Origin: an uncultured Gammaproteobacteria bacterium
GTDB taxonomy: Bacteria; Pseudomonadota; Gammaproteobacteria; JBBQDK01
Assembly: GCA_963778665.1 (NCBI GenBank)
Contig: CAVZVG010000003.1
Location: 463,766 to 527,765, forward strand
DNA: 64,000 nucleotides
Direction: 5' to 3'
The notes beneath the pieces were generated by a model. That model saw nothing but the letters and a program-made list of their open reading frames with translations. It had not been told where the DNA came from and did not search any database. Positions 32,636 through 39,274 of this stretch are shown here, one piece after another; position 1 is the stretch's first letter; each line of letters opens with the position of its first letter. Position numbers and translations under genes: made by a program.

Positions 32636-33490
32636 TCAGACGACCGCTTGCAGTTTTCTCTGCGGCACGCTGCCTTCAGCTGTGGCGGGCTTGCCCTGTT
32701 CACGCATCATATGGCGAATCCGGCGTTCCAGGCGGATATATTCAGGGTGGGCCAACATCGCGTCACGGTCTTGTCCCGCCAGTTCTTCCCTGAATTGCGG
32801 ATGGATCTCGGCCTCGAGACGCCCGGGGTGGCTGGAGAGGAAGAAGATGTCTTCGCCAAGGTAAAGCGCCTCTTCGATATCGTGCGTCACCATGAGCACG
32901 CTCATTCGCTCCTTCTGCACCACCTCCAATAATAGTTCCTGCATCTGCCAGCGGGTTTCCGGATCCAATGCGCCGAACGGCTCGTCCATGAGCAACAGTT
33001 CCGGACTGTTGGCGAGCGTGCGTGCAATCGCCACGCGCTGGCGCATGCCGCCGGAAAGCTGATGAGGATAGGCGTCGGCGACGTGTTCGAGCTTCACCCG
33101 CTCCAGATAATGCTCCACCACACCTTCACTGATGGAGATGGTATCGCCGTTGATCTTCACGCCGTAGGCGACGTTCTGACGCACAGTGAGCCAGGGAAAC
33201 GAGGTGTAGCTCTGAAAGACCATGCCGCGATCGCGCCCGGGCGCGTCGACGAGACGGCCGTTCAGATGAATTTCACCCTGTGTGCGCCGTTCCAGCCCGG
33301 CCACCATGCGCAGCAGCGTGGATTTGCCGCAACCCGAAGGGCCGATGAGGACACCGATGCGATTGGATGCCAGTTGCAGGGATACGTTTTCGACGGCCGT
33401 CAACTCGCGGCCGCCCGGCATGCTGTATACCTTGGTGACGCCGTCGAGCGTCAGTCCCTGCGGCTGTGCCGTTCCGTCACTTGTCGTCAT
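32636..33490 (-). CDS. NitT/TauT-family ABC transporter ATP-binding protein
   Basis: GPSGCGKST, LSGGMRQR, LLMDEPFGALD, VTHDIEEA; ATG at 33490 overlaps the Rieske stop. Confidence 0.95.
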   Translation of the reverse strand: MTTSDGTAQPQGLTLDGVTKVYSMPGGRELTAVENVSLQLASNRIGVLIGPSGCGKSTLLRMVAGLERRTQGEIHLNGRLVDAPGRDRGMVFQSYTSFPWLTVRQNVAYGVKINGDTISISEGVVEHYLERVKLEHVADAYPHQLSGGMRQRVAIARTLANSPELLLMDEPFGALDPETRWQMQELLLEVVQKERMSVLMVTHDIEEALYLGEDIFFLSSHPGRLEAEIHPQFREELAGQDRDAMLAHPEYIRLERRIRHMMREQGKPATAEGSVPQRKLQAVV

Positions 33491-34704
33491 GGCGCTGTTG
33501 CCGTTTGTGATTGCAGTGATTTGATTTGGCGGGCTAGATGGCGTTGGAACAGCCAGATCGGCGCCTCGAGTTCGCTCAATGGACCGGGTGTGTAGGCCTG
33601 TGAGGCGAGACCGGCCTGCACTGCGCCACAGACTTCCATGTCTTCGAGATGAAACTTTTGTAACATTTCCGTCTCCTCTGCAATGATGTCCGCAAAATCG
33701 GGCATGTCGAGTGCCGTGGGACTGACCAGCAGCGTCGTGCGCAGGACCATGCGGTCGGCTGCGAGCGGTTCGATGCGATACCAGTACACGCGGTCGGCTG
33801 CAACGAAGAGCAGAAAATCCGGATGTCCCAGGTAGACGGTCCATTCGTGATAATCGCGCTCTTCGAGTCCCGGCAAGGGCGGAAATGCAAGCAACTGCGG
33901 TTCGCCCGCCCGCACCCGTTCGCGCAGGCTGTCGGCGAGGGGCAGGTGGCAGATGGTGTAGTGCTCGGCTTCCGCTTCGGTCCAGCAACCCTGGGCCGGC
34001 ATGACCGGCTGAAAGATCGTGTGGTGGGCGCCGGCATGGTGATAAGGCTCCATGAAATTTTCGACCAGCACCTTCCAGTTGAACGGACAATCCCAGGACT
34101 GATCGATCACCATGACCAGTTCATCCATGCGCCAGCGTGCCAGGTGCGGCAAAAGATCCGCATAACGCTCGACCAAGGGTTCGGCATCGCCGGAGAAGTT
34201 GACGAATACGAAGCCTTCCCACATGGCACTGCGGAACTCGTGCAGCTTGAGCGTGCCGCCGACGACCGCGGCATGCTCTTTCATGAACGGCGCACCTTTC
34301 AGGCGGCCGTCGAGGTCGTAGACCCAGTGATGATAGGGGCAGCGATACTGACGGCAGTTGCCCTGTTCGGCATGGCCTGTCTCCGGTGGCATGACATCCA
34401 TGCCGCGATGGGCGCACACACGCGACAGCACCCGGATAACGCCGTCGGTTCCGCGCACCACGCTCAGACGTTCGCCGAGCAGCGTCAGATTGACGTAATC
34501 GCCGCTATTGGGAATCTGTGCAACATGCGCGACCGCGAGCCACTGGCGGTTGAGCACCTGGCGCGACTCCCAGGCGAAATAGTCATCGTCCGTATAGGCC
34601 GCCGCCGGCAGCGCGCAGGCTGCACTGAGCGGACGTGCGGCGGTAGCCAGGATGGCCTGGTTGATAGCGTCGACACGATCGACGTCAGGCAGCGCGACAC
34701 TCAT
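33487..34704 (-). CDS. Rieske non-heme iron oxygenase alpha subunit (choline monooxygenase/CntA-like)
   Basis: CAHRG..CPYHHW Rieske motif; NWKVLVENFMEPYHHAGAH and EDMEVC mononuclear iron ligands. Confidence 0.92.
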   Translation of the reverse strand: MSVALPDVDRVDAINQAILATAARPLSAACALPAAAYTDDDYFAWESRQVLNRQWLAVAHVAQIPNSGDYVNLTLLGERLSVVRGTDGVIRVLSRVCAHRGMDVMPPETGHAEQGNCRQYRCPYHHWVYDLDGRLKGAPFMKEHAAVVGGTLKLHEFRSAMWEGFVFVNFSGDAEPLVERYADLLPHLARWRMDELVMVIDQSWDCPFNWKVLVENFMEPYHHAGAHHTIFQPVMPAQGCWTEAEAEHYTICHLPLADSLRERVRAGEPQLLAFPPLPGLEERDYHEWTVYLGHPDFLLFVAADRVYWYRIEPLAADRMVLRTTLLVSPTALDMPDFADIIAEETEMLQKFHLEDMEVCGAVQAGLASQAYTPGPLSELEAPIWLFQRHLARQIKSLQSQTATAP

Positions 34705-34856
34705 GGCTGTCTATTGATCCTCTTGGTCATTCCGGTCCGAGTGGGCGCCGGCTGCAGGGACATATTCTCGATCGGCATCGGTTCGTGACCGACCGGCATG
34801 CGGCAGGCCTTGGTGACGCCGATCGAGATTCAGTCCCTGCAACGGTGCGTCCTCCG

Positions 34857-35894
34857 TTACTTGCCTTCCGCCGCGAGCATGTCACGCAAGGGTGACAAGG
34901 CGACACCGGCTTCCATCGGGTGCGCGGCCTTGACCTGGCCGAACTTCAGCCACCAATCGGTCGTAAGCTTCCAGTGCGCCTTGATCTGATCGTTGTGCAT
35001 GCCGAGCGGCGGATCGCCGGGCAGCAATCCCATGAAGCGTGCCGCCTGCTCTTGGTCGAATACCACGATGCCGCCTTTGTATATCTTGCCGGTCGTGCCG
35101 AGCACCTTCTCCACGTCGGCGACATCGAACTTCAGTCCTTTCGCGATGATCTTATTGCCCTCGGCGGGATGTGCCTTCCAGTAGGCGACCGCATCGAAAT
35201 ACGCCTTCATCACCTTGGCGGCCACTTTGGGTTTTTTCTCGATGAACGGCGTGGCCATGTACATGCCATCACCCAGTAGCGCGCTCTCGATCCAGCCCGG
35301 TTGGCTCGAATTCGTTGCGACCGTTGCCTTCGGCAATGCCTCCAGCACGTGGCTGCCAAACGGTTCCCAGTATTCACCGGCCGCAACCTTGCCGCCGACC
35401 ATCGCACCGACGGCGTCGTCCATGATCAGATTGACGAACTTCACGTCTTTAATCGACACGCCGTTCTGTTCCAGCCAGATGCCCATGTAGATCTGTGTAA
35501 GCCCACCCTCGAGCACCGCCAGCGATTTGCCCTTGAGCTGTTTGGCCGAGGTAATTCCCGGCGCCAGGATGATCTTGTCGGTGCCGTAGGAAGGGTTGGT
35601 ATAGGTCACCAGTTTGACCGGTACGCCTTTGTCGGCGGCGATCGGGCCGTATTCCACCGTGCTGGAGGTCACGTCCAGTGTGCCGGCGGACATGAGCGAG
35701 AAGCTCTCGTAAGGATCTTCGATGATGGAAATGTTCAGATCCAGATCCGGTGCCAGATTCTTCTCCTTGGCGATGAACCAGAAACCGTAACCCGGCCAGG
35801 AGAACAAGGAGATGTTCACCTTGTCCGCCGCACTGGCGAGCGTGGTACTCAACGCCAGAGCGAAGACCAGAAGAAGACGCGGAAAAAACTTCAT
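34857..35894 (-). CDS. ABC transporter substrate-binding protein (NitT/TauT/SsuA-like)
   Basis: Signal peptide; SWPGYGFWFIAKEK, SYGTDKII, YWEPF. Confidence 0.9.
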   Translation of the reverse strand: MKFFPRLLLVFALALSTTLASAADKVNISLFSWPGYGFWFIAKEKNLAPDLDLNISIIEDPYESFSLMSAGTLDVTSSTVEYGPIAADKGVPVKLVTYTNPSYGTDKIILAPGITSAKQLKGKSLAVLEGGLTQIYMGIWLEQNGVSIKDVKFVNLIMDDAVGAMVGGKVAAGEYWEPFGSHVLEALPKATVATNSSQPGWIESALLGDGMYMATPFIEKKPKVAAKVMKAYFDAVAYWKAHPAEGNKIIAKGLKFDVADVEKVLGTTGKIYKGGIVVFDQEQAARFMGLLPGDPPLGMHNDQIKAHWKLTTDWWLKFGQVKAAHPMEAGVALSPLRDMLAAEGK

Positions 35895-35916
35895 AAAGTG
35901 CACTCCTATGGTGATA

Positions 35917-38742: not shown

Positions 38743-38758
38743 TGCAACGGACATGCCA
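38743..38758 (-). promoter_or_regulatory. Sigma-54 (-24/-12) promoter
   Basis: Minus strand TGGCATGTCCGTTGCA gives GG-N10-GC, about 50 bp upstream of the first gene. Confidence 0.8.
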
Positions 38759-38832
38759 AGCCGGTAATTTATGGAAAATTGCATGTAAATATGCACATAA
38801 TGATCACGGGAGCGTTTGCAAGGGTATTTTTT

Positions 38833-38870
38833 GGAACCCGTTTGGTGCGGGTCCGCACCCCAAACGGGCA
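38833..38870. promoter_or_regulatory. Tandem NtrC-like enhancer boxes
   Basis: GGAAC-N7-GTGCG (38833-38849) and CGCAC-N7-GGGCA (38854-38870) versus TGCAC-N7-GTGCA; centres 21 bp apart; AT-rich spacer to the sigma-54 site. Confidence 0.55.
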
Positions 38871-38893
38871 ATTCAGGAGGTCGCGCGAGCGAT

Positions 38894-39274
38894 ATGAGTC
38901 GAATAAGTAACAAACAACGCAGCAGCATCGCGCAGGCGATTCTGGATATCGATATCCATTGGGCGAAAACGTTTCAGACCGCCGGCCTCAGTCATTTGGA
39001 CTACTGCGATCTGTTCGTCCATATGTGGTTGCGCCGCAAGGATCCGTTGCGCAAGACCGACCTCTATCCCTTGATGCCCAACGTCAGCCCGCGCACCGCC
39101 GTGAAGTATGTGCAGCGTGCCATCGACAGCGGTTTCATACTGGAATTTCCGGATGCCTGCGACCGGCGTGCGCGGATGGTAAGTATGTCCGACAAGGTTC
39201 TCGCGGACGTGGAGCGGTTTCTCGATTACACCAAGCGGCGATTCCGCGATGCTTCGTTGGAAGGGGCTGACTGA
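38894..39274 (+). CDS. Small winged-helix (MarR-like) protein divergent from the oxygenase operon
   Basis: GGAGG RBS; VSPRTAVKYVQRAIDSGFI helix and DRRARMV wing motif. Confidence 0.7.
   Translation: MSRISNKQRSSIAQAILDIDIHWAKTFQTAGLSHLDYCDLFVHMWLRRKDPLRKTDLYPLMPNVSPRTAVKYVQRAIDSGFILEFPDACDRRARMVSMSDKVLADVERFLDYTKRRFRDASLEGAD

Follow-up and report, generated by a model that had tools for sequence, protein, structure and literature searches.

A candidate oxidative route from substituted guanidines to guanidine in a sigma-54-type operon of marine Gammaproteobacteria

We analysed a 64-kb stretch of DNA (the window) from an uncultured gammaproteobacterium (GenBank assembly GCA_963778665.1, contig CAVZVG010000003.1, positions 463,766 to 527,765). 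It carries six closely packed minus-strand genes, 32636-38685, encoding a TIM-barrel protein (TIM), a membrane di-iron protein of the fatty-acid desaturase superfamily (DES), an ABC permease, a substrate-binding protein, a Rieske oxygenase and an ABC ATPase. On balance, we favour a reading in which this operon would import an N-substituted guanidine, methylguanidine- or creatine-like, and oxidatively dealkylate it to guanidine as a nitrogen source. We propose guanidine as the product because related copies of the genes sit behind guanidine-sensing riboswitches.

The strongest evidence for this link comes from two loci, L175 and L178, which belong to two other gammaproteobacterial families and in which DES-TIM homologues (43-58% identity) lie behind a Guanidine-II element. 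In L178 the element (38.6 bits) stands directly in front of DES-TIM. L175 begins with a Guanidine-I element, the importer, a creatininase-family gene, a GS-like gene and a Guanidine-II element (34.6 bits), and continues with DES (324 aa, His boxes intact), TIM, another Guanidine-I element, two DUF1989 genes, a carboxylase gene and an allophanate hydrolase gene. Three guanidine riboswitches are found in this one operon (L175 9432-16674): Guanidine-I at its head, Guanidine-II before DES and Guanidine-I before DUF1989.

Guanidine in related loci

Further copies of the operon lie close to guanidine genes. In eight Haliea-type loci it stands back to back with a guanidine carboxylase operon that has a Guanidine-I riboswitch at its head. 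This riboswitch scored 95-98 bits against Rfam in 5/5 loci scanned and was recovered by nhmmer in 8/8; in two of the eight a Guanidine-II element also precedes the carboxylase gene. In L058 a single strand carries carboxylase, allophanate hydrolase, a second DES, an SDR gene, a creatininase-family gene and TIM-DES-ABC, and in L101 a homologue of the Rieske gene (57% identity) adjoins a Guanidine-I-led importer and a DUF1989 pair. Across an even sample of the class, with one unpublished genome (G039) counted, TIM was present in 9/400 scored genomes and DUF1989 in 57/401 (14%). All eight TIM-positive genomes other than the window's own, spread over seven families, carry DUF1989, compared with 48/392 of the remaining genomes; related genomes are not independent, and this co-occurrence is indicative only of a guanidine link.

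A second set of neighbourhoods was anchored on distant relatives of the Rieske protein: 42 metagenome loci of at least 7 kb, at no more than 52% identity. Here a TIM homologue (45-57% identical) was found in 37 loci and a NitT/TauT binding protein in 31. Frequent partners were genes of the polysaccharide-deacetylase family (27), SDR (27), a GS-like ligase (25) and a creatininase-family hydrolase (24), followed by urea/guanidine carboxylase (15), DUF1989 (15), an FGE-sulfatase-domain gene (14) and allophanate hydrolase (8); Pfam verified these partner families on L124 and L145. TIM and the importer recur in this set while DES is found in none of the 42 loci. Therefore, the oxygenase appears to have been swapped, with DES in marine and Rieske in soil lineages. 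By gene neighbourhood, TIM is the constant partner of the oxygenase, whether DES or Rieske. One soil cluster (L145 14445-14978) has a NikR-like nickel regulator between its GS-like gene and its DUF1989 pair.

Layout, conservation and control of the operon

The features of the operon and its upstream region are as follows; families were assigned by Pfam and NCBIfam profile searches of the window proteins, with NCBIfam equivalog cutoffs applied.

37813-38685, minus strand: TIM, xylose-isomerase-like TIM-barrel protein; PF01261 (AP_endonuc_2), 52 bits
36789-37808, minus strand: DES, membrane di-iron protein of the fatty-acid desaturase superfamily; PF00487 (FA_desaturase), 126 bits
35917-36786, minus strand: ABC permease; PF00528 (BPD_transp_1), TauC-like
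34857-35903, minus strand: periplasmic substrate-binding protein, NMT1/SsuA family; PF09084 and PF13379 (NMT1, NMT1_2)
33487-34704, minus strand: Rieske non-heme iron oxygenase alpha subunit, 405 aa; PF00355 and PF00848 (Ring_hydroxyl_A)
32636-33493, minus strand: ABC transporter ATPase, NitT/TauT type; PF00005 (ABC_tran), 117 bits
38894-39274, plus strand: divergent MarR-fold regulator, 126 aa; predicted winged-helix fold
38743-38758, minus strand: sigma-54 -24/-12 promoter motif TGGCATGTCCGTTGCA; consensus match, 57 nt before the TIM start
38779-38798, no strand: palindrome-like element, degenerate ATGC-N6-GCAT, proposed MarR-like operator; read from sequence
38837-38868, no strand: inverted repeat CCCGTTTGGGGTGCGGACCCGCACCAAACGGG with an NtrC-type GCACCA half-site, proposed enhancer (upstream activating sequence, UAS); read from sequence

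A preliminary description of this DNA had named the six packed genes and their families, the -24/-12 promoter and a divergent MarR-like gene. The profile searches bore out every family at its position, the promoter matches the consensus TGGCAC-N5-TTGCW with its GG-N10-GC core, and the divergent protein is predicted to fold as a MarR-type winged helix. Spacing between the genes is 4 nt (TIM/DES), 2 nt (DES/permease), 13 nt (permease/binding protein) and 152 nt (binding protein/Rieske), and the Rieske and ATPase genes overlap by 7 nt.

Searching one genome per species with DES returned 71 loci, nearly all from marine Gammaproteobacteria. Relatives of DES occur in Thiogranum metagenome-assembled genomes (MAGs; 72-82% identity) and in Marinobacter, Alcanivorax/Alloalcanivorax, Halopseudomonas, Haliea/Halioglobus and Methylophaga (53-62%). 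In 59/71 loci TIM, DES, permease, binding protein and ATPase follow one another in this order on a single strand; TIM-DES stand alone in four (L002, L027, L029 and L030), and the remaining exceptions are contig ends or distant paralogues. TIM accompanies DES in 68/71 loci, including the four without an adjacent importer. The co-occurrence of all six genes, which the preliminary description had put forward for checking, thus holds for TIM, DES, permease, binding protein and ATPase, whereas the Rieske gene belongs only to copies of the window's lineage. TIM, Rieske and DUF1989 all went unmatched in two genomes from the same genus as the window's (completeness 93% and 89%), and we therefore regard the operon as accessory. 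In one Thiogranum MAG (L069 3289-4228) DES ends after residue 107 and the ATPase gene follows directly, which looks like either the loss of the remainder of DES together with the permease and binding-protein genes, or a misassembly. In five Alcanivoracaceae loci (L017, L031, L047, L052 and L053, at about 4200-6460) the MarR-fold gene is closely preceded by a ferredoxin-reductase-type gene and a further gene of the desaturase family.

The pattern TGGCAYN5TTGCW has two matches in the window compared with 0.17 expected. The second perfect match (TGGCATCCATATTGCT) lies at 26802-26817 on the plus strand. A sigma-54 motif is found upstream of TIM in 59/68 related loci, mostly 52-102 nt upstream. The genome encodes rpoN (PF04552 match of 236 bits, C3:422479-422955), one NtrC equivalog above cutoff (761 bits, cutoff 559) and 12 enhancer-binding activator genes, none of them in the window. 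We counted NtrC-type hexamers (GCACCA, TGGTGC, TGCACC and GGTGCA) over the 160 nt that precede the -24 box in 58 loci, using random stretches of the same loci as controls. At least one hexamer occurred in 55/58 upstream stretches, at a mean of 2.2 each, compared with 22% of controls and a mean of 0.3. The dyad GCAC-N7-11-GTGC was found in 23/58 loci (2% of controls) and its inside-out form GTGC-N3-9-GCAC in 21/58 (3% of controls), and across loci the GCAC/GTGC elements line up roughly 90-125 nt upstream of the -24 box. The view of a sigma-54-type, probably nitrogen-regulated uptake and oxygenase operon is strengthened by the retained promoter, the enriched half-sites and the presence of rpoN and an NtrC equivalog in the genome. 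From these motifs we infer NtrC as the activator. The window operon itself is wired by sigma-54 alone, with no riboswitch.

Two NtrC-like boxes had been described upstream of the promoter. One survives in part: the repeat at 38837-38868 carries a GCACCA half-site, but as an inside-out GTGC-N6-GCAC and not as a canonical NtrC dyad of the GCAC-N7-GTGC type, which would be expected about 100-150 nt before the promoter. The other, at 38779-38798, is a different palindrome, flanked by the upstream repeat and the -24 box; it was aligned to L001 and L069 by visual inspection and, in related loci, tracks the MarR-like gene. Strict ATGC-N6-GCAT occurs in 15/18 loci with a MarR-like gene compared with 8/51 without; the window's copy misses the strict pattern by one base. 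The MarR-fold gene is divergent from TIM in 17/71 loci. Its product gave no Pfam or NCBIfam family at E 0.01 or better. The predicted structure (pLDDT 89.7) has matches that, among those listed, are all MarR-family or MarR-like regulators (TM 0.49-0.69), and its protein-language features score 0.97 to 'MarR family' clusters. We propose the palindrome as a candidate operator of this protein. Such an arrangement would place the operon under general nitrogen control together with a local, probably ligand-responsive repressor.

Oxygenases, TIM and importer

DES carries the boxes HDCAH, HMRHH and HNAHH, and residues H62/H66, H101/H104/H105 and H260/H263/H264 are invariant in 37 sequences. It scores 126 bits against PF00487 (gathering threshold 29.7) and falls well below the NCBIfam cutoffs of the lipid and carotenoid equivalogs DesA (35.7 of 475 bits), CrtR (29.7 of 500) and CrtW (24.4 of 350). 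In a large protein database its relatives bear only generic 'fatty acid desaturase' names. The preliminary description had suspected that this 'desaturase' acts on a small molecule, and the suspicion has gained ground: DES is paired with TIM and the importer, is swapped for a Rieske protein in distant lineages and stands behind a Guanidine-II riboswitch in two families. Judged from these contexts, DES is most likely a small-molecule oxygenase or hydroxylase and not a lipid enzyme.

TIM has no NCBIfam match, its relatives in a protein atlas carry only generic names, and PDB sequence searches with TIM and with DES found no match at E 0.1 or better. The predicted structure of TIM (pLDDT 85.6) is closest in Foldseek to ketose 3-epimerases and isomerase TIM barrels (TM ~0.6, 13-17% identity), folds that do not name its reaction. 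Residues E130, D158, H186/H188 and E238, which do not vary among 34 sequences, are candidate metal ligands, and we take the spacing of these acidic and histidine positions to resemble the metal site of ketose epimerases in the same superfamily.

The Rieske protein matches PF00355 (63 bits) and PF00848 (98 bits), and its best PDB sequence matches are CntA and phthalate dioxygenase. The alignment to CntA is good over the N-terminal 200 residues only and includes the CxH...CxxH motif (CAHRG...CPYHHW). A Glu at the CntA motif position is retained, to which we assign, by assumption, a bridging role. The protein lies below the GbcA equivalog (127 bits, cutoff 670), and the operon has no beta-subunit or reductase gene beside it. 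None of the 71 DES-anchored loci has a Rieske gene within the operon; in the closest relative, L001, the ATPase gene directly follows the binding-protein gene with no Rieske gene between. Three metagenome contigs, L094, L100 and L125 (87-89% identity), repeat the insertion at this position. Moreover, in seven Halieaceae loci a Rieske homologue (62-67% identity) lies a few kb from the operon, and in six metagenome contigs a permease and binding protein (60-66% identical) are followed by a Rieske gene, as in the window. By gene order, the Rieske gene is a lineage-specific insertion outside the conserved operon. Through it the window operon joins both alternative oxygenases, DES and Rieske.

In NCBIfam the importer lies near TauABC, SsuABC and SaoPAX, with every score far below the curated cutoff: the ATPase best matches TauB (226 bits, cutoff 357), the permease is TauC-like (128 bits, cutoff 342) and the binding protein reaches 95 bits against SsuA_fam (cutoff 163.5), with only weak PDB matches, to SsuA and TauA. 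At family level the importer is thus of the NitT/TauT type, and none of its parts reaches the equivalog cutoff of a taurine, sulfonate, nitrate or urea system.

Proposed pathway and its alternatives

We propose the following scheme, by analogy with known systems. Under nitrogen limitation, sigma-54 with an NtrC-type activator would transcribe TIM-DES-permease-binding protein-Rieske-ATPase, and the divergent MarR-fold protein may add substrate-specific control through the palindrome between enhancer and promoter. The NitT/TauT-type ABC system would import methylguanidine, dimethylguanidine, or a creatine-, creatinine- or guanidino-acid-like compound. DES, joined in this lineage by the Rieske protein, would hydroxylate the carbon adjacent to a guanidino nitrogen, and the TIM metalloenzyme would process the hydroxylated, hemiaminal-type intermediate. 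Free guanidine could then be broken down to ammonia by the DUF1989 pair, carboxylase and allophanate hydrolase encoded elsewhere in the genome. Substrate, hydroxylation site, role of TIM and electron donors are all what we infer for this scheme.

More tentatively, and at somewhat less than even confidence, DES and TIM may work as a hitherto unknown pair of enzymes that removes alkyl or carboxyalkyl groups from guanidines, with Rieske replacing DES in soil lineages. Joined by the second DES, the SDR, the creatininase-family hydrolase and the GS-like ligase, the pair might constitute an oxidative pathway, not described so far, that converts compounds of the creatine, creatinine or methylguanidine type to guanidine. 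It would be widespread in marine Gammaproteobacteria and soil bacteria and wired either to guanidine riboswitches or, in the window, to NtrC/sigma-54. As speculation, the SDR, creatininase-family hydrolase and GS-like ligase would fit a substrate range wider than methylguanidine, perhaps extending to creatinine- or creatine-like compounds.

The same genome holds related modules. A second DES gene (C3:808300-811400; L072 3590-7408), 46% identical to DES, lies on the same contig at a distance of about 300 kb. It is accompanied by a divergent MarR-fold paralogue (33%) and is followed by an SDR gene, a creatininase-family hydrolase gene and a SpoU methylase gene; the block DES2-SDR-creatininase abuts the TIM-DES operon in L058, L062 and L177. 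On contig C4 (C4:18000-37000, L174) a DUF1989 pair, carboxylase and allophanate hydrolase lie ahead of a gene for a 501-aa Fer2/FAD-binding protein whose reading frame is intact. This protein could supply the oxygenases with electrons; a search of the other loci, without L175-L180, found no homologue near the operon. On contig C6 (C6:627500-633000, L073) a soil-type arm of binding protein, permease, ATPase, creatininase-family gene and GS-like gene adjoins urease genes, with the ATPase, creatininase and GS-like reading frames fragmented. Beside the operon in the window is an AcrB-like RND pump gene (29368-32932, plus strand), which is split over two overlapping frames (open reading frames (ORFs) 29368-32094 and 31214-32932). 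Either a frameshift or an indel in the assembly would explain this. Because this gene also changes frame, the broken ORFs on C4 and C6 may reflect decay or assembly error alike.

Several points weigh against guanidine release, a reading drawn from gene context. The window contains neither a riboswitch nor a guanidine carboxylase gene, no Guanidine-I riboswitch was found in the genome (90% complete), and on contig C4 the ORFs of the genome's own DUF1989, carboxylase and allophanate hydrolase genes appear broken (decay or assembly indels). Carboxylase-pathway genes are within reach in only 9/60 DES-anchored loci of at least 12 kb. Some soil clusters continue into urease genes (ureB matches) and not into carboxylase, and there the product could be urea. 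The GS-like ligase, creatininase-family hydrolase and SDR have no role in simple demethylation. Lastly, the nearest characterised Rieske relatives, GbcA and CntA, act on quaternary amines, and the nearest relatives of the binding protein bind sulfonates.

These last points feed the alternative that fares best, which we nevertheless regard as unlikely: that the operon imports and oxidises an organic nitrogen or sulphur compound other than a guanidine, for example a quaternary amine, an N-alkyl amine or a sulfonate resembling taurine, and that its guanidine neighbours reflect clustering of nitrogen-scavenging genes. It draws on the proximity of the Rieske protein to GbcA, CntA and Stc2-type N-demethylases, on transporter parts nearest to TauABC and SsuABC, and on the 51/60 DES-anchored loci of at least 12 kb that show no carboxylase gene nearby. 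However, all of these family scores are far under the equivalog cutoffs, and clustering fits poorly with a Guanidine-II element directly before DES-TIM in two families, with DES-TIM embedded in L175 between riboswitch-led importer genes and DUF1989/carboxylase genes, or with TIM and DUF1989 genome profiles that coincide in 8/8 genomes. The preliminary description had inferred an organic nitrogen compound and had cited Rieske enzymes that act on N-alkyl or quaternary amines; the genomic context points to a guanidine compound and not to such amines or a sulfonate.

Improbable, and a little more so, is an alternative oxidative or ATP-dependent route for assimilating or detoxifying free guanidine. 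Guanidine-I does lead larger operons that hold DES-TIM, the creatininase-family and GS-like pair travels with guanidine genes, and the operons have an importer of the type found beside guanidine carboxylase genes. Yet the guanidine carboxylase route is already present in full in these operons, which would make a second route for this molecule redundant. Moreover, the logic of an oxygenase with a helper fits hydroxylation of a C-H bond in a substituent, as in MgdH/MgdL, and a Guanidine-II riboswitch bound methylguanidine too, in the passages of that study that treat them (PMC12508155).

It is very improbable that DES is an ordinary membrane-lipid desaturase or hydroxylase, induced by nitrogen stress and sharing an operon with an unrelated importer: PF00487 membership, canonical His boxes and relatives named 'fatty acid desaturase' are outweighed by its pairing with TIM in 68/71 loci even where no importer adjoins, its replacement by a soluble Rieske oxygenase in distant lineages, a paralogue that sits with SDR and creatininase-family hydrolase genes, guanidine riboswitch control in other families, and DesA, CrtR and CrtW scores of at most 36 bits.

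Comparison with known systems

As put in the relevant passages of recent work, the source of the guanidine sensed by bacterial riboswitches is largely unknown and the natural role of methylated guanidines is underappreciated (PMC12508155, PMC12186494, PMC12623156). The gene set is a concrete candidate for a second, enzymatically unrelated route from substituted guanidine to guanidine. If the reading is true, the desaturase superfamily has a soluble nitrogen compound among its substrates, a function can be given to a large subfamily of 'sugar phosphate isomerase/epimerase' proteins, and one catabolic module is connected either with a metabolite riboswitch or with the general regulon of nitrogen starvation. 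Culturable carriers exist in Marinobacter, Alloalcanivorax, Halopseudomonas, Haliea and Methylophaga.

In the literature, supplements not covered, we found no paper that places a Rieske enzyme, a member of the desaturase family or this TIM family in a guanidine or NtrC context. The 'desaturase' of guanidine reviews is, where those passages mention it, the 2-oxoglutarate (2-OG) enzyme NapI, and papers on the nitrogen regulon of M. smegmatis were not relevant to this operon. For Stutzerimonas, a review mentions an old route, not defined genetically, that leads from creatinine to methylguanidine (PMC12623156).

Of the more distant comparisons, the rhizopine (Moc) system offers in MocD a precedent for a non-lipid 'desaturase', as an analogy only. 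The rhizopine set presumably also includes a TIM-barrel-type protein (MocC), a Rieske-type protein (MocE, which we take to be a small ferredoxin and not an oxygenase) and a binding protein (MocB). Transporter class, regulation and substrate class differ. A tblastn search of 72,556 plasmids with DES (E 0.01) gave one cyanobacterial match (Gloeothece, 32% identity) in an unrelated-looking neighbourhood and no rhizobial plasmid relative; because no sequence link was found, we keep rhizopine catabolism as an analogy only. The Rieske protein shares with GbcA (glycine betaine), CntA (carnitine) and Stc2 (stachydrine) an alpha-only architecture, CxH...CxxH with a catalytic domain, and a catabolic, nitrogen-releasing context. 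Unlike them, it is far below the GbcA cutoff, has no adjacent reductase and has guanidine-linked rather than betaine neighbours. With NtrC/sigma-54 nitrogen-scavenging operons the window shares a -24/-12 promoter, upstream GCAC/GTGC elements and the combination of an importer with catabolic genes; it differs in its non-canonical upstream repeat and in a likely second, MarR-type layer of control.

Guanidine carboxylase operons (the CgdAB DUF1989 pair, guanidine/urea carboxylase and allophanate hydrolase, under Guanidine-I or Guanidine-II) have the same NitT/TauT importer type, and DES-TIM homologues lie inside or beside them in L175, L176, L178, the Haliea loci and L058. The window operon, in contrast, lacks carboxylase-pathway genes and a riboswitch, and the genome's own copies are on another contig and broken.

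The closest functional parallel is the pair MgdH/MgdL. As described in the passages on methylguanidine by Sinn et al. (2025, Nat Commun, PMC12508155), MgdH, a 2-OG dioxygenase of Vreelandella boliviensis, hydroxylates methylguanidine to a hemiaminal that is unusually stable, and a second protein, MgdL (UniProt A0A265DXW6), cleaves this to guanidine and formaldehyde. The same passages place the two genes with an ABC importer inside a riboswitch-controlled guanidine carboxylase operon, report that a Guanidine-II riboswitch bound methylguanidine as well as guanidine, and describe MgdL as a 'hypothetical protein' with conserved residues within a beta-barrel (PMC12508155). The preliminary description had recognised no described pathway in this gene combination. 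That stands for these enzyme families but fails for the logic of the pathway, because MgdH/MgdL is a described functional analogue in the passages cited (PMC12508155). The enzymes differ: MgdH is a soluble 2-oxoglutarate/Fe(II) dioxygenase, whereas the window oxygenases are a PF00487 di-iron protein and a PF00355/PF00848 Rieske protein, and MgdL is described as a small 'hypothetical' beta-barrel protein, the partner in the window being a PF01261 TIM barrel. Control differs as well, with sigma-54 and no riboswitch or carboxylase operon in the window, although the homologues in L175, L178 and the eight Haliea-type loci do have such a context. Both systems combine an O2-dependent hydroxylase and a second enzyme with an ABC importer and a link to the guanidine carboxylase pathway and its riboswitches, and both would serve to supply nitrogen from a substituted guanidine, a role which for the window system we propose by analogy.

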